From Vulcanimicrobiota bacterium (GTDB taxonomy: Bacteria > Vulcanimicrobiota > Vulcanimicrobiia > Vulcanimicrobiales > Vulcanimicrobiaceae): a DNA stretch of 64,000 bases. A program made the position numbers and the translations under genes. The notes under the pieces were generated by a model. The model made no database searches. It worked only from the letters and a program-made list of their open reading frames with translations, and had not been told where the DNA came from. Location: NCBI GenBank assembly GCA_963714015.1, contig OY970223.1, positions 2,656,001 to 2,720,000 of the forward strand, written 5' to 3'. The stretch's first letter is position 1. Every line of letters starts with the position of its first letter. Positions 2,514-42,960 of this stretch are shown here, piece by piece.

Positions 2514-3274
2514 TAGTCGCGGCGCTTTTCACATCGCAGTATCTGGCCTTGAAATCCCGCAAACTGCGGGAACGGCATGTGCACGCGGTACTTGTCACCG
2601 TTCGCGCCGACAATGACGTCGTTCTCGATGATTACCGTGCCGTTTAGGAGCGGCACGTAAATGTCCCATTGCTGCATCCGCACGTCGTCGTACAGGCCGG
2701 TATCGCGTGGCGGATACTCGCCTTTACGCTCATTGCCCTGAATGCACATCGGGATAGTCGCAAACATGCCGCTATCAGGCTGGAAACTGAATAGGCCATC
2801 TTCGAGCGTGATGATGTAGTCGGAATCCGCCATTTGCGTCTGCATCGGTACCGCTCCGCTATCGATGCCGAGCGGATTGCGGTTCGGCCGGCGGATCGTT
2901 CCGTAAATCGGGGTGAAGACGAACAGCGGATCGTGAAGCGGCCGGTCGTAGGCCAGCGTAAAGACCGAAAGGTCCGGACGGACGGTGTCCGAGCGCTCGA
3001 CGAACACGTCGCCGATCTGGTACGGCCGAACGTCGATGTCCGCGCGGAAGACGAGGATCTTCCCCATGAGGTTGATCTCGATGTCTTTCGCTTTGGTCGT
3101 ACGTTCGAATACGACCGGCACATTCGCGGCGATCTGGTTTTGGGTGGAGACGACGCCGGTGCCGCTGCTGGTTGGGCCGACGCGGTAGACGTCGAATCCT
3201 TGTCCGAGGATGGAGGCGACGATGCCGCCGGCCTCTTGGAGAACGTCGTCGATATCCGGCAGAAACGACGTCAC
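2513..3274 (-). CDS. Putative head-closure/neck protein
   Basis: GGAGG RBS; position after the head-tail adaptor. Confidence 0.5.
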   Translation of the reverse strand: MTSFLPDIDDVLQEAGGIVASILGQGFDVYRVGPTSSGTGVVSTQNQIAANVPVVFERTTKAKDIEINLMGKILVFRADIDVRPYQIGDVFVERSDTVRPDLSVFTLAYDRPLHDPLFVFTPIYGTIRRPNRNPLGIDSGAVPMQTQMADSDYIITLEDGLFSFQPDSGMFATIPMCIQGNERKGEYPPRDTGLYDDVRMQQWDIYVPLLNGTVIIENDVIVGANGDKYRVHMPFPQFAGFQGQILRCEKRRD

Positions 3275-29567: not shown

Positions 29568-30149
29568 AGCGTCTCGCCGTAGCCAGCCTTCCGGCTGAGT
29601 AGATCGACGACCGTCCGAAGCATGCGTACGTGGGCATCGCGCGCCCCAGTCTTGACGTCTGCATTGATCTCGCACAGGCTCTTCGGCTCTTTGAAGACCG
29701 GCGTGGCTTCGAGAAGAGCGAGCAGCGCGCGGTCCGCCGGCGTAAAGAACAGCGTTCCGCGCCTCTTGGCGAGCTCCCGACGGATCTGCACGGCGTTACT
29801 CATCGCATGCGATCTCGGTAATGCGCAGCGGTAAGGCATCCGGCTGGACCTGGGCTTTCCGTGCCTGGGCTTTCCGTGCTGGAGATCGCCGATGCTTGCC
29901 CTATCTTCTCTGTAGAGGACATGCCCGGACTCCACCGTTTAGGGTCCGCGTATGAGCACGCTACGCTGGAAAAAGCCGGTTCAATCGGGAGGAGCCGCGT
30001 TGATTCTGGCACTTGCACGCGCAATGCCTCAATACGTACGATGCCCGCGGAAACCGCATAGGAGGTTCTTATGAACAAGTGGGAATGGCTTACGCGAAGG
30101 CTCGACCGCTTCGCTTGGCTGTTTTCGACCGGAGCCCAGTGGCGGCGAC

Positions 30150-30234
30150 TCACGCGGCTTCCTCGCCGTCTTGCGCAACGGGTTTGATGTCGTACAGCGC
30201 CGCAGAACAGGTCGGCTACGAGGAGACGCTTCAC
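30150..30234 (-). pseudogene. Internally deleted C5 methyltransferase remnant
   Basis: VKRLLVADLFCGA (motif I start) joined out of frame to ALYDIKPVAQDGEEAA*. Confidence 0.5.
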
Positions 30235-30503
30235 GCGAAGAGCCCGTCTTCGGGAAGGACCGTCTCGGCAATTAAGTCGGGATCTTGGCCTTTCATGGCT
30301 TGGTCGTAGGCAGACTTCTCGAAGCCCGGCGTTACAACGCGGCCGCCGCGGATCTTCGGACGAAACTCATGCGAGGGGTCCTCGACCGTGTGGCCACGGC
30401 CCTTATTCACCAGACACGCACCGCAGTTGAGATTGTGCTCGCTGTTCAAATGCCCGCACGTTTCGACATCGCAAATCGCGTCATGCGGATACTGCGGATT
30501 CAT
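30231..30503 (-). CDS. Small Cys/His protein
   Basis: CDVETCGH..H..CGAC. Confidence 0.5.
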   Translation of the reverse strand: MNPQYPHDAICDVETCGHLNSEHNLNCGACLVNKGRGHTVEDPSHEFRPKIRGGRVVTPGFEKSAYDQAMKGQDPDLIAETVLPEDGLFA

Positions 30504-30729
30504 TCGAGCACCAACTCATGCTCGGCGTAGGTTTGCGCGGGCCACAGATCGCGACGGCCCTTCGCGTTGACGAACACCGCAACTTCAGGCTTCGCGTCCG
30601 CTATCGCTTCGTCAATCGCCGAACACGAATGGTCGGCTCCCTTCGGATAGTTTTCATGGCAGAGCGGGCAATGCCGGTCGCCGAATCTTGTATCGCCACC
30701 ACACGGGACGCAACGGAAGTATGCCTCGC

Positions 30730-30945
30730 TCATCGATTGCTCCGTGCTGATGCGCTCTTGGCGCACGAATACGTTACGAGATAGTGGCCGGGATGGTTGA
30801 CGTCGAATCCAATGCTGGCAAGCTCCGCCTTTTGCCCAACCGGGCACAAAGGAGTTTGCGCCGGCGGCTTTCGCTCGACGACATACGCGAGCGCTAGCAA
30901 CGCAATCCCAAGCACGACGGCGCCGATCCGAAGGTAGACGTTCAC
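30730..30945 (-). CDS. Small membrane-anchored protein
   Basis: N-terminal TM segment; coupled. Confidence 0.5.
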   Translation of the reverse strand: MNVYLRIGAVVLGIALLALAYVVERKPPAQTPLCPVGQKAELASIGFDVNHPGHYLVTYSCAKSASARSNR

Positions 30946-31184
30946 TTCGCACCTCGCAGGAGCATCGCGCGCGGGAGCGCCTCGTTAATAAATCCGCCGG
31001 AGTAAACTTGCTGGCGAATGCCGCGAAGCCGTTCACGTAAATCGGCGAGGCTGTGCTCCTTCTCGTCAACTTGCGACCGTAGATCCTGAACCTCGCCAGA
31101 AAGCACGGTCATGTGCTCGGCGATGACGTCGCACAGCAGTAGGAGCTCGGAGTGAACCAGCGTCGGTTCGTTCGGTTCGATCAT
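30942..31184 (-). CDS. Coiled-coil protein
   Basis: Coupled ORF. Confidence 0.5.
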   Translation of the reverse strand: MIEPNEPTLVHSELLLLCDVIAEHMTVLSGEVQDLRSQVDEKEHSLADLRERLRGIRQQVYSGGFINEALPRAMLLRGAK

Positions 31185-31414
31185 GCAGCTTCACCCGGAA
31201 CCTTTTCGGTCAGTTGAATCGTGCGCGGGCAGCCGTCCTCGAGTTGCACGTAGCCCAAGCGGCGCAGAATCTTCACAACGCGATGCGCGTCCGAGACCGA
31301 CTTGTAGCCGGCGGCGTCGGCGATCTGCCGATAGGTGGGCGGAATACGCCTCGACGCCAAATGCGCAGCGATGGCTTGATAGACCCGCAGATGTTGCGAG
31401 GAAAGCCCATTCAT
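31181..31414 (-). CDS. LexA N-terminal DNA-binding domain only
   Basis: PPTYRQIADAAGYKSVSDAHRVVKILRRLGYV..PRTI; no peptidase domain. Confidence 0.85.
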   Translation of the reverse strand: MNGLSSQHLRVYQAIAAHLASRRIPPTYRQIADAAGYKSVSDAHRVVKILRRLGYVQLEDGCPRTIQLTEKVPGEAA

Positions 31415-31731
31415 GCGGCTGGCTCCTCAATCGGCGCGCGCATCACTTTATTGAGCGCTCGCACCGCGCGCCGGCGCACCGAAAGAGTAAACTTTAACTC
31501 GTCGCGCTCTTGTCGATCGTGACAGGAACGGCAACCGGGGCGGCCGTTTTCGATGGGACACGCGTAGCGCGCTTTCGGTCCGATAAGACTGCGCGAAATA
31601 ACGTGCATCGCGTCCGTAGCGCCCTTCTTGCCGCAGAAGTGGCAGCACGATCCATGCGCTTTGAATACGGCGCGATGGAACGCCGCCGCTTCCACATCGC
31701 GTTTGGGATTCGCTATGAGTGGACGACTCAT
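31411..31731 (-). CDS. NinG/HNH-like nuclease
   Basis: CHFCG..DAMHVISRS..EN..CRSCH. Confidence 0.7.
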   Translation of the reverse strand: MSRPLIANPKRDVEAAAFHRAVFKAHGSCCHFCGKKGATDAMHVISRSLIGPKARYACPIENGRPGCRSCHDRQERDELKFTLSVRRRAVRALNKVMRAPIEEPAA

Positions 31732-32507
31732 GCGGTGCACCGGTGGGAATAGCCAGTCAGCTCGACCTTGAGTGAGCACATTTCCATCAGCCGGTCGATC
31801 AGTTTGCGGCCAACATGCTCTTCCACACCGCTCTTCGCCCACTGCATCCCCAACTTCGAGAGACTCAGGTTCGACGTGACGACCATGCCGAGGTTGCGCT
31901 CGTATCGGCCGTTGATCAGGGCGTACAGCAGCCGTCCCGTATCCGGCGTGAAGTTTTCCGTCCCGACGTCATCCAAGGCCAGCAGTCGCACCGAGATCAG
32001 GCGATCGATGATGTCGAGCTCGCCCTCTTTCACCGCGCCGCGGCGGTTGTACGAATCGCGGATCCGCATTAGCAATCCAACGCCGGTCGTAAAGACGGCC
32101 AGGGTGCCGCGCTCGACGCAGTCGTTCACGATTGCGCCGGCCAGATGGGTTTTCCCGATGCCGGGCTCGCCGCTCCACAGGTACGCACCGATCGATGGCG
32201 CGTTCGGATTCGCGGCGGCGTCTGCAACCTCGCGGGCAGCGACGTAGCCATCACGGTTCCCGTCGTCGACGGTGAAATTCTCGAATCGGCGCGTCTCGAA
32301 TCGCGGTCCGATCTCGGACAACTTCCGGCACAATTCCACGGCCCGAGTGCGGCGCTGGTCCTGCCATGCCGCGAACTCGGCCTGGTCACGCGCTTCGCGC
32401 TCCGCAAGCCGTTGCTCCGGCGTCTTGTTCCGTGCGCGCTCGAGCATCTCGTCGAACGTCTTCGGCCACGCAGATTCCATGCGATCGCTCACGCTATCGA
32501 GGGTCAT
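31728..32507 (-). CDS. DnaC/IstB-like helicase loader ATPase
   Basis: GEPGIGKTHLA, LLALDDVG, LINGRY, VTSN, DRLMEM. Confidence 0.92.
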   Translation of the reverse strand: MTLDSVSDRMESAWPKTFDEMLERARNKTPEQRLAEREARDQAEFAAWQDQRRTRAVELCRKLSEIGPRFETRRFENFTVDDGNRDGYVAAREVADAAANPNAPSIGAYLWSGEPGIGKTHLAGAIVNDCVERGTLAVFTTGVGLLMRIRDSYNRRGAVKEGELDIIDRLISVRLLALDDVGTENFTPDTGRLLYALINGRYERNLGMVVTSNLSLSKLGMQWAKSGVEEHVGRKLIDRLMEMCSLKVELTGYSHRCTA

Positions 32508-33403
32508 GCGGCACCTTTTCGGGCACGTTCTTGCTGCTCTTGACGCTCGATCCGGGCGATGTAATCGGCCGATTCTGCTGAGACATTGCCCTTCTGTCCA
32601 GCGTGCGGCGCGGTAGACTCGCCCCGGATTTCATCCCAATTCCAAGCGGAAAGCAGTCCGCCGGGTGTTACGGCACGCCGGATTCGGCGCGCTTTCGAGG
32701 CCATGAAGAACCGTTCGGCCCTCGCCGAAATGTCGTCAGCCGAATAGACCGCGATGAGTTTTTCCGCATCGCCAAGATGCTTCAGGCACCAGGAAATGGG
32801 ATCGAGCGACTCGTGCGCCGGAATAATCTCTTCGGCGAGGCCGCGGCGCAGGAACCAATCGCAGAGTTCGAACGCCGGGGAGCGGGCAGCTCGGGTGGCA
32901 TTTTCAGCCGCGCGCGCGCTCTCAGCGAGCGAAGCGAGCTGAGTATTGGAACATGGATCATGGAACTCATCACTTTGCGAAGCGTTTGCTACCGCATCGC
33001 TATGCGTTTGCGATGCGTTCGCTATAGGGTCGCTATTAGGTTTGCTATAGCCTTGCCAGCGTTTTGCTGCGCCCTTCCTACCCGAGTCGCTAGCACGTTG
33101 GTTACGCTCATGCATTTCAGATCGGACGGATTCCATGAACGGCGAGTGCTCGGCGTCTGGCACGTTGGGATGCTCTACCAACCGACTTCCGAGAGCCGCC
33201 CGGATCGCGCGCATTTTAGCCGGTTTTACACGTCCTAAGCGAGCTTGCTGCGCGACATCGGCTGGGATACTTCCCTTCGTCCATTGTCGGCATAAGAGCA
33301 GCAAGTAAACCCCTATCTCTTCAGCCGTTAGGTCGGGCGTATCCGCTACAAAGCGGTCGATATAAAACGGCATGGCTGGGGGCGCGTAAAGGTCTTCGGG
33401 CAC
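32504..33403 (-). CDS. Replication initiator (DUF1376/YdaU-like)
   Basis: MPFYIDRFVADT..LTAEEIGVYLLLLCRQW..GRKGAAKRW; next to the DnaC-like gene. Confidence 0.85.
   Translation of the reverse strand: MPEDLYAPPAMPFYIDRFVADTPDLTAEEIGVYLLLLCRQWTKGSIPADVAQQARLGRVKPAKMRAIRAALGSRLVEHPNVPDAEHSPFMESVRSEMHERNQRASDSGRKGAAKRWQGYSKPNSDPIANASQTHSDAVANASQSDEFHDPCSNTQLASLAESARAAENATRAARSPAFELCDWFLRRGLAEEIIPAHESLDPISWCLKHLGDAEKLIAVYSADDISARAERFFMASKARRIRRAVTPGGLLSAWNWDEIRGESTAPHAGQKGNVSAESADYIARIERQEQQERARKGAA
32975..33052. repeat. Probable phage origin iterons inside the initiator gene
   Basis: Clustered (T/C)GCTA(T/C) and GCGTT repeats in the low-complexity linker, as in lambdoid origins. Confidence 0.45.
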
Positions 33404-33404
33404 G

Positions 33405-33656
33405 CTATTGGTTCACCCAAAAAATATCGAGGTGATTATGGAAGTAGACGGCCGTCCAGATGACGACGCAGATCGCGAGATAGACTACCAGCCCGCGCAT
33501 TGCACCGCGCGCCACCGCCGGCGGGAGGAGTTGCCCGTCGTCGAGCCAGCGATCGCACGCGGCCGCAAAAGCGCGTCCAAGTGAAACCGCTCGCTTTACT
33601 AAAAGTGAGGGGTGGAGGCTATTGAATTGTCTGTTGAACCGTCTGCCCACCCTCAT
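33405..33656 (-). CDS. Small membrane protein
   Basis: C-terminal TM helix. Confidence 0.45.
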   Translation of the reverse strand: MRVGRRFNRQFNSLHPSLLVKRAVSLGRAFAAACDRWLDDGQLLPPAVARGAMRGLVVYLAICVVIWTAVYFHNHLDIFWVNQ

Positions 33657-34585
33657 GACGCGCGCTTCTCTTTCAACCGGACAATCCGGGCAACGATCTC
33701 TTCTGCCTCCTCGAGCATCGTAATCGTCGTATAGTCCGTCTGCTTCCCGCGCGTTACGTATTTGACGACCGCGGCGATCTGCGTCTGCGCGATAGCGTAC
33801 TGCGCAACCAACTCGCCGATCTTGGCGATGGTGCGCGCCAGTAACTCGCCGCGCGTGGGAACGTCGCCACGCGCCTGCGCGTCCGCTAACTGCTCACCCT
33901 TGAGCGGCGGAGGCTCAGCCTTCTTCTGTCGCGTCAGCGCGATGAACCGGGCATAGTCGAGCCCCTGGATCTGTTGGCCGACCTTCAGATCCGGCGCCGC
34001 GCTTTTCTCAACGTGGAAGATGGGCGGCGCCACGCGCGGATCGCCTTTGGACTCCAAACGGAAGATGTAGTCAAACGCGTACCGGAACTTCTCGTCGCCG
34101 ATAAATTTCAGGCCATCGGCGCGGAAATCACGGCCCTGCCGAACTAACTTCGTCGCCTGATGCGCCGTGAAGATCACGTTTTTCGCGGTGACGCCAAACG
34201 CGAAGTCTAGGCACGCCCCGAAGCGACGATTCACCGTCACCCAATCCGTAACGTACTTTCCGTTCTCCGTTCGCGACGTGTGTTCGACGACCAGGTCCGC
34301 ATAGATAGCGCTCGCGGAATCGGTGACGACAGTTTTACCGGGTGCACTTGGCGCGCGCAGTTCCTTGAATGCCGCAGCAACGTCGGAAAGGCTCGTCGGC
34401 GCGAAGTGCATGAAGTGGAAACGGTCACGGAAGTGCGCCGCACGGCCGCCCTCACGGTCAACGAATACCGGATCAGGCCAAGTCATGGCCGTATGCGTTT
34501 TTCCGACGCCGTTCGGTCCCCAAAAAAGAATCTTGTCGAAGACGTCGGCATCGGTGATCTGTCCGGAATCTTTGAATAGGCTCAT
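33653..34585 (-). CDS. Sak4/AAA_24-like recombination ATPase
   Basis: KILFWGPNGVGKT, VDREGG, VVTDS, IFTAH; GGAGG RBS at ATG 34585. Confidence 0.82.
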   Translation of the reverse strand: MSLFKDSGQITDADVFDKILFWGPNGVGKTHTAMTWPDPVFVDREGGRAAHFRDRFHFMHFAPTSLSDVAAAFKELRAPSAPGKTVVTDSASAIYADLVVEHTSRTENGKYVTDWVTVNRRFGACLDFAFGVTAKNVIFTAHQATKLVRQGRDFRADGLKFIGDEKFRYAFDYIFRLESKGDPRVAPPIFHVEKSAAPDLKVGQQIQGLDYARFIALTRQKKAEPPPLKGEQLADAQARGDVPTRGELLARTIAKIGELVAQYAIAQTQIAAVVKYVTRGKQTDYTTITMLEEAEEIVARIVRLKEKRAS

Positions 34586-34870
34586 TGCGCAGCCTCCACG
34601 AGCGGATGCGACGCCTCGGGCGGCTCGACGCTGATCTGATAAGCTCGACACGTCCGGATTCGAACGCACGAGTTGGTGGAACGCGGCGCCCGCGGATTCA
34701 GCGGCGAGAATCTGGTTGTATGTGTCCGCTGAAACCGGCGAGTAGTGCCACACGGCCGACCATCCGTCTTTGCGCGGATGGAACTTCAGTTCTAAAATGG
34801 CCTCGCCGTCGTGACCGACCTCGGCAAACGCGCTGGATGAGACCTTGACGCGTTCGATATCGCGGCGCAT
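34582..34870 (-). CDS. KTSC-domain protein (apparently fused to the next gene by a frameshift)
   Basis: VSSSAFAEVGHD..LELKF..Y..V..Y..AESAGAAFH. Confidence 0.75.
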
Positions 34871-35522
34871 CTATGACACGACCTTGAGCGGCGTAATGTT
34901 CTTCTCGCCTTTCGGGAGGGGCTCGAAGATCAATCGCGGCGGCCCGAACGTGTCGACAACGTTGGCGTCGACGATCTCGGCAACACGCCCGCCATACGCC
35001 TTGGCAAGGGTACGCAAGTTTCCGGCATGCGAATTATAGACGGGCTTCGCGCCGAGATTGACGATCTGCGCGATGATGTCGGGGTGCAACCCTGAAACAT
35101 CGACGCCCTCAACCCATACGGCGTTCTTCAATTCCGCTGCGGGGAGAATGTCGGAAGAGCTCCAGTAAGCCGGCGATGCGCTTGTCGATGATTTTCGACG
35201 CGGTTACCTCGCACCGATACGTGTCACTCGGAAGTTTTTTGGCCCCGCGCTCGATGATACGCTTTAGCGCTACCGCTTCCGCAAGGCGCACGAGCACACG
35301 GTCCGGGCCGACTTCCTCTTCAAACTTCGCCTGCTGAAGATGGACATGTGCTTTGATTGCGCCGGCAGTCTCAAGGAACGACTCGTCGTCCATTGAGAGG
35401 AACTGCTTAACCGCTTCGAGCGACCGAGGGTCGCCATCGGCGACGATTTCGTGCGCCGCTTTTTCGAGTGGGTCTGTGACGACCTGCGGCGGGGTTGTAA
35501 TCTTTTCTTGCGTTTCGTTCAC
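34871..35522 (-). CDS. Hypothetical recombination-module protein (frameshift near 35140)
   Basis: Two overlapping ORFs that read as one protein. Confidence 0.45.
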
Positions 35523-35870
35523 GCTGCTTTACTCCGTAACTTTCGAAATTCGAAGGCGTCGGCGAGATCCGGTTCTTGTTCCGAAATCAATCGCGCATAG
35601 TACGCAGTGTAGGAATTGTCTAAGGCGTAATCGTTCTCGCCCTTGGTGCGCACGCCGAATTCGTAGCGCAACTTCTCCCAGAGCATCTTCATGCCGATGC
35701 GATGGTGACCCGTGGCCTCGCGATACTCGCGCGCCAGCATGACCAGCGCGACGTAGACGTGCGTGTTTAACGCGTGAAATTCGCGAAAACGCTGCGCAAT
35801 CGGGCCGCGCTTCTTCCCGACCGGAATGATCTTCGTCGAGAAGAGACTGCAACTGCGCGAGATTGCTCAT
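35519..35870 (-). CDS. Conserved phage protein (frameshifted)
   Basis: FREFHALN..IGMKMLWEKLRY..ALDNSYTAYYARL. Confidence 0.55.
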
Positions 35871-36578
35871 TGCGCAGCCCACGGAAGCGTGCAGACCCAC
35901 CATAAGCCGGCGATGACGCTGCCGAAGATCAGCCAGCCGCCAAGATACGCGGCCGGAACCTCGAGGCACGAATACCAGGGAGCACGCGGGACTTCGGAAG
36001 CCTCGGCCGCTTCGACGGCCCGGACTTTCTCAAGTCGCGCGACGTCGTCGGGCGTCGCTTCCGGCATAATCTCCGCGCACCAGGGCGGAACATGCGATCC
36101 GCTGCGCGATTCGATCTGTCCGGAAGTGGTGAATACGACGCTCGGCGCGCTCGTCCAACGGAACCGAAGCTCGGCGAATTGCTGCGCGGTCATCACGCGG
36201 ACACCCGGCACTCTTCGCACGTCGGCGGACATTTCGCGCGCACAATGACGCACGACCGGCAAATCCACTTCTCAGGACCGATGACGACGTACGTGCCGTC
36301 ATCCTGCGGCCAAAGCCCAAGATTCGCGCCGTCGTAGCCAACCGGCTTCGCACAATCGGCGCACGGCTTCTGCGCGACCGCGACGCAGAACGGGCAGTAG
36401 GCGTTCTCTTTTGAACACGGAGCGCAGAGCAGCGAGTCCGTGCAGCCGGCGCAATTCGTTGCCGCCGTACCGTTGGCGTCCTCGTAGCCGCCGATGCTCA
36501 AGCCGTGATCCCCACCACCGCCTACGGCGAATAATTCCGACTTGCAGTCGGCGCAGACCGATGAATAGCCAGCCATGA

Positions 36579-36860
36579 TCAGGCGACTTCCGGTCTGAAG
36601 GACGTGAAAGTGCCGTCAGCGTTTCGCACGTATGGCCAGCCGTAGACGACGGCTTCATAGGGCCCGCCGGTCTGCGGCGGCTCGGACGCGACTTCCATCG
36701 CGACGTCATGCAGGTTCGCAGCGGCGTCAAGAACGCCGAGCAGGTTCCCATTGGGATTCGGTGTAGACTGGTGTTGCATCGTACGCTCCTTTACAGCGGT
36801 GATGCGAAGCGGCGTAGCGTTGACAGACGTTGCGCCGTTCTGATTTTGAAAGGTGATCAT
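36579..36860 (-). CDS. Hypothetical early protein
   Basis: ORF downstream of cro; start uncertain. Confidence 0.4.
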   Translation of the reverse strand: MITFQNQNGATSVNATPLRITAVKERTMQHQSTPNPNGNLLGVLDAAANLHDVAMEVASEPPQTGGPYEAVVYGWPYVRNADGTFTSFRPEVA

Positions 36861-36981
36861 GCCGCGTCGGACTCGCGCCGGCGCCGTTCGTTATTCAGGT
36901 CCGCGCGCTCGAGTGCGTACAGGACGGAGACCGCTTCAGTGCTGTCATCCAGCACGATCGGAGCCGGCGTAACCGCGTCGT

Positions 36982-37224
36982 TCATGCCGCCTCACGGCGA
37001 ATGATGCTCTTGATTGCATCGTCCGCAAGCGCGCGGCGGGCGCGCTGAAGGCGAACCGTCGCGCGTTCAACGGCTTGGCTCGCCAAGTAGAATTCTTCGA
37101 TGATCGATTCGCTGAGCGGAATCTGTCGATCGTCCAAGCGTGCCTTGCGGCCAGCGCCCAGGCGCGCACCGCCGCGTTTTGATTTCGCAGGCGAGCAGGC
37201 GGACTGTGATACGCTGGTTGCCAT
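36982..37224 (-). CDS. Basic early protein
   Basis: RGGARLGAGRK motif; directly after cro. Confidence 0.55.
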   Translation of the reverse strand: MATSVSQSACSPAKSKRGGARLGAGRKARLDDRQIPLSESIIEEFYLASQAVERATVRLQRARRALADDAIKSIIRREAA

Positions 37225-37226
37225 GA

Positions 37227-37427
37227 CTAGGCCACTGCCCCCAACGTAAGGCTACGAAAGCGCTCGGATGCTTTCTGCAGTGTTATTACCGCGTCGCCCG
37301 GCATACGGCTCGCACCATCTTGCCAGCGCTTTACGGTGTTTGCGGAGCGGCCGGTGAGGACCGCCACGTACTCGTCCGACCAGCCTTCGTGCTGTTGGGT
37401 CTGGGCGAGCGCGTCTTTCAGTTCCAT
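37227..37427 (-). CDS. Cro-like HTH regulator
   Basis: SDEYVAVLTGRSANTVKRWQDG..MP; divergent from cI. Confidence 0.8.
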   Translation of the reverse strand: MELKDALAQTQQHEGWSDEYVAVLTGRSANTVKRWQDGASRMPGDAVITLQKASERFRSLTLGAVA

Positions 37428-37436
37428 CGTAAGGCT

Positions 37437-37486
37437 ATGTTACAGAAATGTTCACCCTTTTGTCAACACTAATGTAAACATTTCTG
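37437..37486. promoter_or_regulatory. Lysis/lysogeny switch: cro promoter and operators
   Basis: - strand TTGACA N18 TAACAT; inverted 13-mers CAGAAATGTTCAC (37443) and GTAAACATTTCTG (37474). Confidence 0.75.
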
Positions 37487-37498
37487 GGGTAGCCTGAA

Positions 37499-37846
37499 GT
37501 GGTGACAGAGACGTTTTCAGAGCGCCTCGCTCGGTTATGTCAAGAGGCCGGAGTCAGTAAAACCGAACTTGCCACGATTTTGGAGGTCAGCGAAAACCAA
37601 GCAAGACGCATCCTTGATGGAACCACCCAAAGCCTGAAGCTGCTGCCTGCTTGGCGGCTCTCAAAACGCCTGGGGATCACCCTCTCCGCACTAGTCGGCG
37701 AATCTCCCGAGGACGCTACGCGATCCATCGACCGGGACGCGCTGATCGCGTTGGGGGGCATGAATCTTGTTCAGGCGCTGCGAGAGTTGCAATCTCGCGT
37801 TGAATCTCTTGAAGAACGGAGCCGCAAGACTGACCTAAAAGCGTGA
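37499..37846 (+). CDS. CI-like XRE-family repressor without peptidase domain
   Basis: FSERLARL..SKTELATILEVS..LSKRLGITLSALVG; C-terminal coiled coil. Confidence 0.85.
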   Translation: MVTETFSERLARLCQEAGVSKTELATILEVSENQARRILDGTTQSLKLLPAWRLSKRLGITLSALVGESPEDATRSIDRDALIALGGMNLVQALRELQSRVESLEERSRKTDLKA

Positions 37847-37904
37847 ACGCAAACTCTGCCACATCGAGGCGGTCGGTCATCTTCTTTACGTTCCTTACCG
37901 GAGG

Positions 37905-38663
37905 GTGTCCATGGGAGCATTTCTTGAATTCGTTGGTTGCGTTTGCATCTGCTGGACCATTTTCGCGAGTAGTGCGCGTCCAGAACGGCTACGATTCGTC
38001 GTCGGTTTCGTCGGCGCGTTGCTCGCCGCAATGGGCCTCGGCTTAGACCCACCAAACGCCGCAGTCTGGCTCATTCTTTTCGGAGTGCTCTTCGCCGGCC
38101 TGGGCATTGCGAAAAAGGGATATCGCGCCGCCGGAATAGGTAGTGGGCTCGTGTTGCTGGTTATCGGCGCAAGCTTCATGCCGGGCACGTCGAGATCGCA
38201 GCGCACTGCCGTGGCCGCAGCGCCGTCACCCGCTCCGGTACATGCATTCAAAGCAGCGCCAACACCTCGCCCAACGCGCTCGCCCAAACCGACGCCTCCT
38301 CCTCCGCCGCCGACGCCAACGCCAAATCCGATATTACAAGAGAAGCACGACTTCATCGCAAGCGTCGACGAATCGATCTCAGGCCCGATGATCGAAGGTA
38401 ATCCGTACAAGTACGTTGGCGATAACGTCGACCTGCGCTGCACGGTAGAGAATATTCCAGATCCGTCGATGTTCAATGCTGCGTGCGGCCAGGACGACGA
38501 CGGCACCGACGCGATCATCGTTGTGCAATATGACGACACGTCCAGCTTGGACAAAGGGCAGTCGGTGCGCGTGCTCGGAACCGTCGTAACTCCGATGCAA
38601 GGAACAAACGCCATGGGCGGGTCGATGAACTTCCCGACCGTCGAAGCGCATTTTATGGAATAA
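37905..38663 (+). CDS. Membrane protein with Pro-rich linker and OB-fold-like domain (lysogeny/exclusion candidate)
   Basis: Several TM segments, PTPPPPPP, NPYKYVG..LDKGQSVRVLGTV; downstream of cI. Confidence 0.7.
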   Translation: MSMGAFLEFVGCVCICWTIFASSARPERLRFVVGFVGALLAAMGLGLDPPNAAVWLILFGVLFAGLGIAKKGYRAAGIGSGLVLLVIGASFMPGTSRSQRTAVAAAPSPAPVHAFKAAPTPRPTRSPKPTPPPPPPTPTPNPILQEKHDFIASVDESISGPMIEGNPYKYVGDNVDLRCTVENIPDPSMFNAACGQDDDGTDAIIVVQYDDTSSLDKGQSVRVLGTVVTPMQGTNAMGGSMNFPTVEAHFME

Positions 38664-38676
38664 CGCGCTCCATAGC

Positions 38677-38700
38677 AAAAAGCGCCTCCAACGGATGCGC
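38677..38700 (-). terminator. Intrinsic terminator for leftward transcripts
   Basis: GCGCATCC-GTT-GGAGGCGC-TTTTT on the - strand. Confidence 0.6.
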
Positions 38701-38723
38701 GAGCTCGTTCCCTCATTATGGCG

Positions 38724-38809
38724 ATTATCGGCTAGCCAATCCGCTAGCGCAAGAGTACTTTTTGGATCACCTTATCCACAGCCGCAATGCATCTGGGTAC
38801 TTTTGTACC
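38724..38809 (-). promoter_or_regulatory. Putative promoter plus operator boxes
   Basis: TTGCGC N17 GATAAT; box TGGGTACTTTTGTACC 38794-38809; variant box 38753-38768; TTATCCACA 38772-38780. Confidence 0.55.
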
Positions 38810-38875
38810 GCACTCTGTCACCGCTTCGTTTGTATCTGTCACCGTTTCACGGTATCGGCGCAGACCGTAAGATCG

Positions 38876-40406
38876 TCAATCGTAACTTTCGTCACCGTAG
38901 TTAACTAGAAGATCGCGCGTCGTCTTGGCGCCGAGACTTCCGCAAAACCGTGACCGTTCGATTGCGCACCGTATTCTCGCTGATATTGAGGTCCGCGGCG
39001 ATCGCCGCCCGGTTCTTGCCCTTGAGAATCATCACGAAGATTTCGCGTTCGCGTTCGGAGAGCGTCTGCAAACGCGGATCGGAGAGCCGTTCCTGATGAC
39101 GGTCGACGAGCCGGCGGAACCAGATATGGGGGAAATTCGCGTCGATCGTCTTGGCCGCGTACTCGAGCAGGCCGTCTTTGTGCTCCATTTCGCCGAGGTG
39201 AATCGCGGCCAGCGATGCCCGCCACAAGAACCCGATCGATCTCCAGGTGCGCCAGGCCGATTCGATATGCTGCGTTGCGGCGCTACGGTCTCCGTTCGAG
39301 CGCTCGACAACGCCGCTCGTGTAATCAATCAGTGCACGGATGCGCAGGTCCGGACGCGAGAAGGCGAGCAGCGGATATGCGGACGTCTTGATCTCGGCGT
39401 ACTTGTCCAAGAAGAACTTCGATCTCGTTGGATTCTTCGGCGCCGTCAACTCCGCCGCGAGTAAGAGCGCAGCTCGTTCATCACCGATGACCGTATCCCA
39501 ATCAATGGGCGCAAGGAGCGCTTCGGCTTCACGCAAGCAATGCTCGGAGAACGCCGCTTCGTTCAGCCCCGCGGCCAAATATGCGCGGTCAAGGAACGTT
39601 AGCGCACGTAACGCCGGCTTCGGCGCAACGGAAGCCGACTTCGAAAAGAAGTCATACGCCGTTGGTCCCTGCCCGGCAGTCGCGTAAAACCACGCGATAT
39701 TGCGTAGCGTCTGACACTGCTGCGCCGCAACGGAGGGAACCCATGGGACGTGCGCCGCTTTCGCCTCGACGTAGCAAGCCAGATCCGCACTGTCGAGCTC
39801 GCGCGCGAGCGCAGAAAGCGTTTGCACGCACCACGCCGCCATCCATACGTCGTACGCTGGTTCGCGAAAGAGCAAATCGATTGCGTCACGCAGATGAGCG
39901 ATCTGCTTGGTGAAATGCCCGCGCACCCCGGCGAGTCCAGCCAGCAACTCGAAACGTCGCGCCGGTTCAAATTCTACGACGGCAGGCTCGTTGAGCAGTT
40001 GCTCTGCGTCCGAATAATTGCCGAGCACCCAATGCGTGAGTGCTTCTTGATAGCACGCCTCGCCAAGAGCCGCACGATCGTCGAATTGCATCGCGTACCG
40101 GCGTGCCGCAGTGTGAACGAGCAGACCGTCTTTCGTCATATCCGAGCGGCACATTGCTGCGCCTAGCAGTGCAAGCGGGCGCGGTTTTTGCTCGAGCGGC
40201 AGATCGTTTACGAAAAAATAAAACCCCGACTGCAGCAGATCGACGTGCTTCCCAAGGCGCATGAAAATGCGCGCTCGCAGCATGCGCGCTTCAAGGCGCG
40301 AATCGTCGTGCGTAGCGGTAAGGCATTCATCGAATCGGGCTTGCTGGAACAAACGGCTTGCGTCGTCCGCCGAGTACCCGACCTTGGCGTTAGTCGTCGG
40401 TAACAT
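38876..40406 (-). CDS. TPR-like helical receptor with C-terminal LuxR HTH (1-nt frameshift near 38937)
   Basis: About 430-aa helical-repeat region, then LSEREREIF..GKNRAAIAADLNISENTVRN; corrected end KLGAKTTRDLL. Confidence 0.85.
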
Positions 40407-40415
40407 AGAAAAGAT

Positions 40416-40446
40416 GGGGCACGATCTGTAGTATAGACCGTGCCCC
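40416..40446 (-). terminator. 12-bp hairpin between the peptide and receptor genes
   Basis: GGGGCACGGTCT-N7-AGATCGTGCCCC then ATCTTTCT. Confidence 0.5.
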
Positions 40447-40477
40447 CGCTCTTTTGAGAAATCAATCCGTAAATCTT

Positions 40478-40622
40478 TTAGCCGCCGCCGATTCCGCCCC
40501 CATTGTCAGCCGGCGGAGGTGTCGGTTGCGACGTGGCGTTGATCGTCACGTTCGCTGATGGCGGTTGAATCGGTGACAGAGCAAAAGACTAAACTGAGCA
40601 GCACGCCAAGAATGTAGATCAC
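40478..40622 (-). CDS. Small secreted peptide precursor
   Basis: AAGGAG RBS plus GTG and hydrophobic MIYILGVLLSLVF. As read it is 38 aa (stop 40506). Removing one T from a T4 run gives 47 aa ending PTPPPADNGGGIGGG (stop 40478). Confidence 0.65.
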
Positions 40623-40653
40623 CGTAGGCTCCTTTGCAGACAAAAGTCGCTAG

Positions 40654-40669
40654 TGGGTACTTTTGTACC
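40654..40669. promoter_or_regulatory. Palindromic operator GGTAC-N4-GTACC
   Basis: Identical 16-mer to 38794-38809; lies between the divergent peptide and integrase genes. Confidence 0.65.
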
Positions 40670-40734
40670 TAGCACGTTGCTTCGCGGCGCATGTGTCAGT
40701 GCCCTGAGATCGTCGGACGATCTTTACGCAAGCG

Positions 40735-42317
40735 GTGACAGAGCGGACGGAGGTCCCGCGCAACGCGTGGAAGGGCACTGCCCCAATCGTGAAGTTGAAA
40801 AAGAGCGGCCAACTGCAAGGTCACGCGGCATGGGCCTATTTGGTCGTCAGCTCCGAGCAGCAAGCCGATACGCTCGACGATCAGCAGGCGTGGGCAGATC
40901 GCACCGCGCGCGCGCACGGCTGGGAGATCACGCGCTGGTTCAAGGACACGTCGACCGGCAAATCCGGCGCGCGCAAGCTGCTCGATGATCTCGTCGAAGC
41001 ACTGCGCGCCATGAAACCCGCCGAACGCCCAGCACGCGTGCTGATGACGCGCCTCGATCGCCTCGGGCGCGGCGATGGCCTCGAGCCCATCGAATACTTT
41101 GCGAAGATCCGTACGCTCGGCCCGGTAATTCATACCAGGGAAGACGGCGACAACGCGATCCATCGCGCGAGCGATGCGCTCAAGCCGATCCTGCGCGTCC
41201 TTACCGGTGCGCTCGAAAACGAAGCGCGTCGCGATAAGATGATCGAGAAGTGGCGGAACTGGAAAGCCGGCGGCCGCAAAGGTCTGCTCCGGCCCTACGG
41301 TATCGCTACTGACGAGCATGGCCATGACGTTGCCCTCGAGCCCCAAGCGGAGTTCGTCAGGAAGGCGTTTCAGCTGCGCGTCCAAGGGCTCGGGCACGTG
41401 GCGATAGGCAACTACCTACGCGAACACGCGCCGCCGATGATCTACAAAAACCCGCGCAAGAAACTCTCCGAGCATCGCATGCGCTGGACGCGCGGGAGCG
41501 TTCCGCAGATGCTGCGCAACGAAGCCTACCGGGGCGTTGTCGTCGACGAGGCGCTCTGGGATGAAGTGCAATTCGTACAGCGGTGGGTTCCGCCCAAAAA
41601 GACGGTCAAGTGGGAATGGCCGCTCTCCGGAACGCTCCGGTGTTACTGCGGGTACAGCATGACCGGTCAAGCCTCCGGTGGCAGCTGCAACCGCTGCAAA
41701 GGGCGCGACCATCGGCATGAGCGCGTTCGCTATTATGTCTGCTCTGAGCGTACGCACGTCGGCGTCGAGCCAACGCGTTCGAATCAAGGACCGCCAACCT
41801 CAAGTAAACCGCATTCGCGTTTCGTGCGGGCCGATTTACTCGAAGAGAAGTTCGCCGATCTGTTGAAGCAGATGGCCGGCTCCCGCAGCTCGTCGCACGA
41901 TTCGCGTCCGAGAAACGGTTGTCAGCGCGATCGCGACAAGCGCTCGAGGACCGTGTGCGCAAATTGGGCGACGTCGTCGCCGGCGCCGAACTACGCCGCG
42001 AACGCGTTTGGGCACTACACGAAAAGGGACACGTGCGGGACGAGGATCTACAGCAACGCCTCGACGCGATCTCCGTGGAAACCGGTGCGGCTAAGCAGGA
42101 ACTTACGCGGCTACGGGCCGAGATCGCGCAGCAGGAACGCATCGGCGGTGCCGCCCGGAGCGCCCTCGAAATGCTTCGGCGCGCGGCGCAGATTTGGGCC
42201 GATGCGGACGTTGAGGACAGGCAATTCATTGCAACCGCAGTCGCTCGATATTGCGGCGGATTGACGGTAACGGCGGATGGAACGCTGCAACCGGGACGCC
42301 TCGTCCAGACCGCTTAA
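40735..42317 (+). CDS. Large serine recombinase/integrase (frameshift near 41880)
   Basis: AYLVVSSEQQ, DTSTG, TRLDRLGR, recombinase domain LRNEAYRG, Zn ribbon LSGTLRCYCG..YYVC, coiled coil in the second frame. Confidence 0.9.
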
Positions 42318-42332
42318 AAGCGAACAAGAGTT

Positions 42333-42348
42333 CGTTCCACGTGAAACG
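42333..42348. promoter_or_regulatory. parS-like site
   Basis: CGTTCCACGTGAAACG versus the chromosomal consensus TGTTNCACGTGAAACA. Confidence 0.7.
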
Positions 42349-42396
42349 GTGACAGAGTGTGGTCTCCTCCGAATTGCCGCCAGCGTACTTGACTTT

Positions 42397-42501
42397 GAAA
42401 ACATGCGCGAGATCAATACGCTTCGCGACGTTCAGATGGCGCAGCGTAAAGCAGACAACTCCATTACGAAGAAATTCATCCAGTCGATCGCGGAAGACTA
42501 A
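42397..42501 (+). pseudogene. 3' remnant of a small host gene interrupted by the prophage (attR region)
   Basis: ENMREINTLRDVQMAQRKADNSITKKFIQSI aligns to the C-terminus of the adjacent paralogue; no 5' part visible. Confidence 0.55.
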
Positions 42502-42883: not shown

Positions 42884-42960
42884 GGGCCATTAGCTCAGTT
42901 GGTTAGAGCGCATGCTTGATAAGCATGAGGTCCCAAGTTCGAGCCTTGGATGGCCCACCA
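42884..42960 (+). tRNA. tRNA-Ile(GAT)
   Basis: Cloverleaf, CATGC-TTGATAA-GCATG, encoded CCA. Confidence 0.97.

Follow-up and report, generated by a model that had tools for sequence, protein, structure and literature searches.

We find that a small open reading frame (ORF) and the receptor-type gene directly downstream of it probably form a cognate signal-receptor pair. Both lie on the minus strand of a 64,000-nucleotide stretch of a Vulcanimicrobiota genome (assembly GCA_963714015.1, contig OY970223.1, positions 2,656,001 to 2,720,000; hereafter the window). The pair would belong to a lineage-specific family and sits here within the immunity region of a prophage. Comparison of related loci strongly supports the peptide-receptor reading at the level of sequence, and an arbitrium-like role in the lysis-lysogeny decision is plausible by analogy. 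The preliminary description of this DNA had proposed a peptide-sensing lysis-lysogeny switch with a C-terminal LuxR domain in a host that appeared not to be a Firmicute. That interpretation is partly supported: the comparative expectation, the host and the C-terminal helix-turn-helix (HTH) stood, while the likeness to arbitrium holds by analogy only. The elements of the pair are the following.

40478 to 40622, minus strand: putative pre-pro-peptide gene, read in two frames (sequence reading).
40629 to 40634, minus strand: AAGGAG ribosome-binding site, 6 nt before the GTG at 40622 (sequence reading).
40583 to 40586, minus strand: T4 run, the most plausible site of a frame slip by assembly indel (sequence reading).
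40416 to 40446, minus strand: hairpin (12-bp stem, U-rich tail) that separates the stop of the peptide gene from the ATG of the receptor (folding).
38876 to 40406, minus strand: receptor, a tetratricopeptide-repeat (TPR)-like helical-repeat superhelix followed by a LuxR/GerE HTH (stop at 38901 as assembled).
38937 to 39068, minus strand: the LuxR/GerE HTH, residues 447-490 (PF00196, E 1.6e-9).

We compared 82 loci that encode homologues of the receptor, namely a first set of 42 with enough upstream DNA, classed by hand, and a validation set of 40. A small ORF with a hydrophobic leader lies directly upstream of the receptor at 38 of the 82 loci, and it carries D-x-G-G or PPY cores, often in 2-7 copies. 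A further 24 loci have as the partner a lipoprotein in which the same motif follows the lipobox. Within the first set, 22 loci have a small ORF of 41-116 aa on the same strand with a hydrophobic leader and Gly-Gly or PPY cores; this count takes in the window and L044, each only after a frame change, and the partly masked L040. Seven loci have a DUF4382 and CarboxypepD_reg lipoprotein of about 320-350 aa (Pfam was run on two of the seven, and one, L011, comes from the unpublished genome G023). Three have a short leaderless Gly-rich ORF beside a receptor without HTH, two have another ORF, and eight have no partner, one of these being the third receptor of a tandem array. The preliminary description had proposed to check receptor homologues for adjoining small secreted ORFs with co-varying ends. 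The homologues are indeed very often preceded by signal-bearing small ORFs, and the D-x-G-G-rich ends of these vary by clade.

The motif pattern was written after seeing the data, and an automated test was therefore fixed beforehand and applied to new loci. The 40 validation loci came from other genomes and were chosen before inspection. The test looked for a hydrophobic small ORF that has either the motif or an exact repeated 5-mer. In the first set it was passed by 16 of 40 loci (9 of 40 by the repeat alone), and in the control, the long ORFs of the window's own genome, by 42 of 2170 (18 of 2170 by the repeat alone). In the validation set 16 of 40 loci passed. The remainder comprised 17 loci of the large-lipoprotein kind, assigned by eye without Pfam and including two listed from an internal start, and seven loci with none. 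The Fisher test of validation set versus control gives p 2e-16, a value that overstates the case because relatives are not independent.

The cores differ between loci, and the last one usually forms the protein end or stops 1-3 residues before the C-terminus; in Phr and AimP propeptides the core likewise lies at the C-terminal end. Examples are DSGGVMTGD in three copies (L010), DTLGGGPV in three (L016), DSMGGIPVG in three (L017), ADSIGGPLT in five (L055), NAGPLGGSGIG in seven (L024), EGSHPPY in three (L019), ...PPDSGGSMPG at L002 in the window's own genome, and ...PPPPDSGGGMPGK at L013. Many of the small-ORF leaders end in a lipobox (LAAC, LAGC, IAGC and similar). The large lipoproteins have a similar motif between lipobox and domain, for example KDTLGGIP or KGVYGGIGP. 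Comparing the repeated cores of L010, we found synonymous changes in 17 of 27 codon comparisons and no replacement, a zero that is partly by construction because the cores were picked by amino-acid pattern; the spacers differ. Across ten precursors the repeated cores differ by 144 synonymous versus 15 non-synonymous changes. So many silent codon differences exclude recent DNA duplication as the reason for the identity of the cores.

Constructing a quick maximum-likelihood tree of 38 receptors with SH-aLRT support, we find that the peptide classes, as read from the sequences, follow the receptor clades. The three PPY pairs, the DUF4382 group and L041/L045 (...GGMPL) each form a clade with support 100, and L013/L002/L010/L014 (DSGG...) a clade with support 99. 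The window receptor groups with locus L060 at support 94. L060 encodes the closest relative with genomic context, 34% identical to the window receptor, and it is one of only 2 of 347 other family genomes that match this receptor at E 1e-50 or better. Directly upstream it has a signal-bearing ORF of 50 aa, MLISIILTLVLAAATP...PTPPPSGDTGGGPSGK (in full MLISIILTLVLAAATPATPSGGAGTAPVAADTVMPTPPPSGDTGGGPSGK). An S41/PDZ tail-specific protease gene (L062, 10443-11864, minus strand) and a tRNA-Val stand directly upstream of the L060 pair. The protease might be a processing enzyme, in this single case.

The small ORF of the window can be read in two frames. As assembled, it runs from GTG 40622 to the stop at 40508-40506 and gives the 38 aa MIYILGVLLSLVFCSVTDSTAISERDDQRHVATDTSAG, the length that the preliminary description had stated. 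This product is unremarkable, and it is frame 2 that holds the motif of the family. Read without alteration from 40588 to 40481, frame 2 ends at TAA 40480-40478 and gives SFALSPIQPPSANVTINATSQPTPPPADNGGGIGGG, with the C-terminal end ...PTPPPADNGGGIGGG. The peptide gene encodes a hydrophobic leader (maximum 11-residue Kyte-Doolittle value 2.93), a Pro-rich linker and a C-terminal D-N-G-G-G-I-G-G-G core. Export was judged from hydrophobic leaders and lipoboxes alone. The T4 run in which one T fewer had been suggested is located at 40586-40583, and a TAG at 40591-40589 in frame 2 means that any join falls at or right after this run. In BLASTP, TSQPTPPPA-DNGGG of window frame 2 aligns with TVMPTPPPSGDTGGG of the L060 peptide (10/15 identical, E 3e-4, at the C-terminal end), which is the strongest single argument for the frame change. 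Because frame 2 carries the family motif, we read the small ORF of the window as more than a chance ORF. It lies 72 nt upstream of the receptor gene. The hairpin between them (40446-40416) has a dG of -26.4 kcal/mol and a z of -3.61, with an equally good fold in 1 of 200 shuffles, and looks like a terminator or attenuator.

The above frame change raises the question of how reliable the assembly is. The window lies on a single contig of 3.56 Mb, whose marker completeness is 89.6%. All three of the housekeeping genes tested are split over two overlapping frames: rpoB (G000:C1, 2035484-2038733), rpoC (2063474-2066972) and gyrA (1029558-1031985). These breaks are not biological, and therefore the assembly carries indel errors, which makes the proposed frame change credible and means that gene calls in this genome need frame-tolerant reading. 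The earlier premise of common errors is thus supported at the level of the assembly, for indels in general. The integrase next to the pair switches reading frame from about 41870. The last HTH helix of the receptor sits in the other frame as LGAKTTRDLLVNYGDESYD, matching ...LSVKSTRDLLVKF... of the homologue P0002, and this continuation ends at TGA 38878-38876. The paralogues in the same genome are frame-broken too, L003 twice and L005/L006 once. Divergent from the broken paralogue of L003, an ORF at 2719-3240 (plus strand) begins with a lipobox leader and later has a prepilin-like GFTISE...hydrophobic segment; an assembly indel has probably joined two genes here.

The receptor as assembled (40406-38901) has 501 aa. 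Its description as a helical-repeat protein with a LuxR HTH stood, its length of roughly 510 aa did not. The C-terminal LuxR HTH is genuine, as given by the GerE/LuxR match above, and no signal peptide is present. Further towards the N-terminus Pfam gives a weak TPR_MalT match (residues 342-421, E 1.2e-4, below the cut-off), and Pfam and NCBIfam hold no model for the sensor part. Searches with these two collections returned no match of the receptor to the Rap, NprR, PlcR, Rgg and AimR family models, only the GerE/sigma-r4 HTH and the sub-threshold TPR_MalT. Pfam finds no N-terminal P-loop nucleoside triphosphatase (NTPase) of the nucleotide-binding oligomerization domain (NOD) type. An autoinducer-binding domain is likewise missing, with the SdiA-, TraR- and PA1136-type matches of NCBIfam covering the HTH alone and lying far below the cut-offs.

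The predicted structure of the receptor is a confident superhelix plus HTH, with helical repeats starting at residue 13. In fold comparison the model appears closest to domain III of MalT (score 26.5; 324 residues aligned, root-mean-square deviation 4.3), followed by Rap and AimR proteins: RapI (21.4), the phage phi105 Rap with peptide (19.1), SPbeta AimR (18.3), phAimR (17.0), RapH (16.0) and NprR (16.0). Foldseek against the PDB gave generic TPR matches alone, with TM-scores <0.5. A complex prediction of receptor residues 1-440 with the frame-2 peptide scored 0.01 without controls and speaks neither for nor against binding.

The host belongs to the family Baltobacteraceae of the largely uncultured Eremiobacterota, and is therefore not a Firmicute, as had been suspected. 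A word-based search returned a single relative, P0002, which at 52% identity is the closest one. Among 1.84 billion proteins, a profile built from four members matched 481 representative clusters with an E of 1e-30 or better. Those relatives that carry a name are Candidatus Eremiobacteraeota and Baltobacteraceae, and in the protein atlas the nearest clusters are labelled Vulcanimicrobiota. We sampled 300 other genomes of the phylum at the same threshold. Of the 206 that belong to the window's own family, 170 have a match. Two neighbouring families contribute 1 genome of 3 and 1 of 22, and 18 other families, with 69 genomes between them, contribute none. The receptor family is thus confined mainly to one bacterial family, in which a genome typically has several copies; the window's own genome has five paralogous places. 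A profile search of genome contigs gave 4 loci. The Streptomyces locus L059, considered as a relative, was ruled out as a short chance-like match. Our searches of the literature on Eremiobacterota, Vulcanimicrobium and Baltobacteraceae turned up no account of a system of this kind, and neither did those on RRNPP systems outside Firmicutes or on TPR, LuxR and propeptide together.

Several arrangements within the family stand apart from the common one. Receptors L023, L025 and L048 (also L050 and L061) form a subclade of 445-458 aa without the LuxR HTH (GerE in 0 of 3 tested). The short ORFs ahead of them lack a classical leader and end in ...SGGGELGG, ...STGGSISG or ...SGPSSSG; by analogy, this recalls Rap proteins and leaderless pheromones. 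In genome G006 (L024/L051, G006:C1:1632725-1636954), three tandem receptors follow one precursor with seven NAGPLGGSGIG units. The window's own genome has two tandem lipoprotein-receptor units at G000:C1:3420680-3424933, one of them frame-broken.

Candidate regulatory sites surround the pair and are listed below.

40656 to 40669, minus strand: palindrome GGTAC-AAAA-GTACC, beginning 47 nt ahead of the peptide gene; the LuxR-type HTH may use it as an operator.
38796 to 38809, minus strand: a second, identical GGTAC-AAAA-GTACC, about 70 nt past the corrected receptor stop, facing the 3' end of the cI operon.
38726 to 38740, minus strand: 15-mer ATTGGCTAGCCGATA, with two copies in the genome.
38813 to 38823 and 38834 to 38844, minus strand: two copies of the CGGTGACAGAG element (motif scan).
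37500 to 37510, 40571 to 40581, 40733 to 40743 and 42347 to 42357, plus strand: further copies of the CGGTGACAGAG element (motif scan).

The 14-nt core of the box occurs exactly twice in the 3.56-Mb genome, and its 16-mer form GGTACAAAAGTACCCA exactly twice in the window, the second time at 38794-38809. L060 has GGTAC-ATTT-GTACC 42 nt before the peptide ATG. Three PPY genes (L019, L020, L022) are preceded at about 100 nt by TGGCAC-N4-GTGCCA and then a TATGAT/TATCAT hexamer, and the L002 and L014 peptide genes by paired GCTAGC hexamers. By sequence, the upstream palindromes are thus clade-specific. The 18 kb around L060 hold one box copy only, which makes the second box a feature of the phage alone; it is a candidate promoter or operator and the likely output site. 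A Sigma-70 consensus scan of 38600-40800 gave two matches, neither before the peptide gene. The other copy of ATTGGCTAGCCGATA falls within the palindrome that precedes the peptide gene of L002, the chromosomal paralogue pair (G000:C1:1722869-1722883; L002 664-678), and this shared 15-mer could allow cross-talk between the host pair and the phage.

The CGGTGACAGAG element has 7 matches in the window, 6 of them in 37500-42357. The expectation is 1.15 per window, and 7 matches were reached in 0 of 100 shuffles. Extended to 11-16 nt, it reads TGAAnCGGTGACAGAG and occurs six times in the 4.9-kb lysogeny module. In four copies, GTGACAGAG coincides with the start codon of the cI-like gene, of the integrase and of two small ORFs beginning MTECG, and the copy at 40571-40581 lies inside the peptide gene immediately after the T-run. 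The TGAAnCGGTGACAGAG element may act as an operator or mark the start of leaderless transcripts. Inverted repeats of 21 nt, 90% complementary (38807-38827 and 42343-42363), flank the receptor-peptide-integrase block and contain CGGTGACAGAG.

The neighbours of the pair are as follows.

37227 to 37427, minus strand: Cro-like gene, divergent from the cI-like gene (family search).
37499 to 37846, plus strand: cI-like HTH repressor gene (family search).
37905 to 38663, plus strand: membrane protein of 252 aa that has a Pro-rich linker and follows the cI-like gene (ORF list).
40735 to 42317, plus strand: large serine integrase, phrog_95, divergent from the peptide gene and frame-broken near 41870-41890.
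42884 to 42960: tRNA-Ile.

Pfam and PHROGs name the flanks of the pair as the serine integrase (here 40735-42264) and the cI-like HTH gene. Further left PHROGs names terminase, HNH endonuclease, RusA, methyltransferases, a DnaC-like loader, a primosomal protein and a Sak4-like protein. From these flanks and phage genes we place the pair inside a prophage, beside its integrase end. The layout in the preliminary description, a small ORF with AAGGAG and GTG 40622 directly upstream of a C-terminal-LuxR protein between the cI operon and the integrase, has all its elements in place. When the integrase flank was compared with the 90 kb on its left, no att-like direct repeat exceeded 15 nt. The 252-aa protein matches nothing in Pfam, PHROGs or NCBIfam; it combines membrane helices with a long Pro-rich linker and a C-terminal domain. 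A long antisense ORF (37895-38716) that overlaps its gene is probably spurious.

Searching for the module on other phages, we found no receptor homologue in viral contigs by profile search, no match of the receptor by tblastn among 50,697 phage records, and no megablast match of window positions 30000-42400 in the phage records. Metagenome contigs queried with the window receptor and P0002 also gave no homologue. At loci with related integrases, a receptor homologue within 1.5 kb was seen in 0 of 11. Given these results and the mostly chromosomal relatives, the phage copy looks like a captured host-type pair, as in phage Rap-Phr, and not like a conserved part of a phage lineage. In genome G284 (L115, G284:C1:312000-326000), a receptor homologue lies about 2.8 kb beyond a related serine integrase, in the order integrase, two small ORFs, GAF-domain protein, receptor homologue. 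It is probably outside the element, and no peptide ORF was seen upstream of it.

We propose the following course of events for the pair. The small gene would encode a pre-pro-peptide whose hydrophobic leader directs export, followed by the Pro-rich linker and the D-N-G-G-G-I-G-G-G core that are seen in frame 2. The core would be released outside the cytoplasmic membrane and re-imported, probably via an Opp-type permease; in the host genome, SBP_bac_5, the family of Opp/Dpp-type binding proteins, has 11 matches, and LspA is encoded too. Inside the cell, the peptide would bind the concave face of the receptor superhelix and alter the action of the LuxR-type HTH at the GGTAC-N4-GTACC boxes. Both boxes are present in the DNA, and their occupancy is a prediction. 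The box before the peptide gene would give feedback, and the second one, past the receptor gene and facing the cI operon, would be the most likely phage output. The decision under its control may be lysis-lysogeny, induction or host manipulation.

A number of observations weigh against this proposal. At 15 of the 82 loci the upstream candidate is missing. The motif pattern was post hoc on the first loci, a bias of which the repeat criterion and the validation set are free, and the count of silent changes between cores is partly circular, as said above. The tree position of the window receptor is unsure because its branch is long (1.57). MalT domain III, a sugar-binding domain, is the nearest fold, and some eukaryotic TPR proteins reach the same scores as Rap. 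Vulcanimicrobium alpinum, the family member in culture, is diderm, with an outer membrane (PMC9758169; family name PMC10582173), so a released peptide must cross the outer membrane to act between cells. A lysis-lysogeny role in particular is burdened by the 0 of 11 integrase-related loci, by the receptor family members examined being nearly all chromosomal, and by the neighbours of L060, which are housekeeping genes (TGT, LeuRS, enoyl-CoA hydratase, tRNA-Val and the S41 protease).

Could the receptor instead be a regulator that senses another ligand, for example a small molecule as MalT does, next to a gene that it merely regulates, with the D-x-G-G motif serving an extracellular role? We consider this unlikely, though it deserves attention. 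At 24 of the 82 loci a large lipoprotein (about 260-350 aa) stands in the place of a short propeptide, with DUF4382 and CarboxypepD_reg where Pfam was run (two cases), which fits a regulator and its neighbour equally well; the boxes ahead of the small genes are also in keeping with plain transcriptional control. Yet the small ORFs and the large lipoproteins have only a leader and a short motif in common and no domain. Their cores are multi-copy, under amino-acid constraint and C-terminal as in known pheromone propeptides, and several pairs occur per genome, each with different cores. A signal could also be read by the cell that made it: a lipoprotein-type precursor would be cut in the periplasm, and its fragments would be imported and report the state of the envelope to the cytoplasmic receptor of the same cell. 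The lipoboxes of many precursors, the diderm build of the cultured relative and the S41/PDZ protease gene beside the L060 pair, a single case, are consistent with such self-reporting. We regard it as improbable, for many precursors, that of the window included, have no lipobox, the cores of paralogues have diversified strongly, as is typical of private communication channels, and a phage would gain little from reading the envelope of its own cell.

The small ORF might finally be a chance ORF, or the module a decaying remnant in which the breaks in the peptide gene, the receptor and the integrase are real. Three frame breaks within 3.6 kb could mean decay, and no close orthologue of the phage module turned up, with only the 2 of 347 other family genomes noted above and none in the viral, metagenome or phage collections. 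Against this, rpoB, rpoC and gyrA are broken as well and cannot be broken in reality, frame 2 has the family motif and matches the sister locus L060, and the ribosome-binding site, the hairpin and the conserved box are all present. We therefore judge a chance ORF or decay very improbable. Weighing these alternatives, we retain the cognate signal-receptor pair as the probable reading.

We offer a wider reading tentatively, with more doubt than confidence. Baltobacteraceae would have evolved a peptide-pheromone language of their own, independent of Firmicute RRNPP, and a temperate phage would have captured one pair and built it into the immunity region as an analogue of arbitrium. The build would be a MalT-like sensor fused to a LuxR HTH, with multi-copy, often lipoprotein-anchored propeptides. 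One GGTAC-N4-GTACC box would serve feedback on the peptide gene, while the second would drive an antisense or output transcript against the cI operon. The output region also has the box of the host paralogue pair, so the phage would hear the host peptide plus its own.

Whatever its phage role, the family of pairs is large, is undescribed in the literature searched, and looks like peptide quorum sensing outside Firmicutes. In that literature, cytoplasmic helical-repeat peptide signalling and phage decisions made by such peptides appear in Firmicutes and their phages only. The present family has the same genetic logic as the Firmicute systems in a different build, with one copy in a prophage immunity region. 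Should the peptides be the ligands, a diderm lineage would join those with peptide quorum sensing, the family would supply natural orthogonal triples of peptide, receptor and operator by the dozen, and the repeated origin of phage communication would become testable. Since the predicted cores are short and carry no modification, they lend themselves to synthesis and binding tests.

Among known systems, the receptor resembles MalT and the LAL regulators in having a sensor superhelix followed by a C-terminal LuxR HTH and in the weak TPR_MalT match. The ligand of MalT is maltotriose. Unlike these regulators, the receptor begins with the helical repeats, has no N-terminal NTPase module and is paired with a small, predictedly secreted ORF product. 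Uncharacterised clusters of TPR and LuxR regulators of Actinomycetota share its size and domain order (language-model features 0.95-0.96), but profile searches do not detect them as relatives in context, and we know of no peptide partner for them. The LuxR-type receptors of acyl-homoserine lactones (AHL) likewise have a C-terminal GerE/LuxR HTH acting on palindromic boxes near promoters, whereas the sensor here is a helical-repeat superhelix without an autoinducer-binding domain. Phage-encoded LuxR-type AHL receptors reportedly exist (Silpe and Bassler 2019, listed among the references of PMC13389391).

With arbitrium (AimR-AimP-AimX) the pair shares a phage-borne receptor and propeptide in the lysogeny region and a candidate output site, the second GGTAC-N4-GTACC box, that adjoins the pair. 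It differs in the order, which is here peptide then receptor, in the C-terminal LuxR-type HTH, in the lack of AimR sequence similarity and of a demonstrated aimX-like gene, and in having mostly chromosomal relatives, with the module at none of the 11 related-integrase loci. The term arbitrium-like, as used in the preliminary description, thus holds by analogy only: the fold is nearer to MalT domain III than to AimR, and no RRNPP or AimR family model matches. A 2026 review places phage peptide communication in Gram-positive hosts (PMC13389391).

The RRNPP(A) systems of Bacillota (Rap-Phr, NprR-NprX, PlcR-PapR, PrgX, Rgg-SHP) differ from the present family in several respects. The receptor here matches none of their sequence families, and its HTH is a C-terminal LuxR/GerE domain, whereas their effector part is N-terminal, either an XRE-type HTH or a bundle that binds response regulators. 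Many leaders here are of the lipoprotein type, the cores are Gly-Gly or PPY, and the host phylum is Eremiobacterota, of which the cultured member is diderm. RRNPP_detector was applied to complete Firmicute and viral genomes alone (PMC10075063). The likenesses lie in the genetic layout. In both, a small propeptide gene adjoins the gene of a helical-repeat receptor, and the mature core stands at the C-terminal end of the propeptide; such an adjacent propeptide gene with a C-terminal active part is predicted at the 38 of 82 loci, including the window after the frame change. Several core copies in one propeptide also occur in both, as RRNPPA propeptides can be multi-peptide (PMC9765709; PMC11343458). 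The HTH-less receptors L023, L025 and L048 resemble the Rap proteins, which have no DNA-binding domain, and both families have many divergent pairs per genome and copies on phages.

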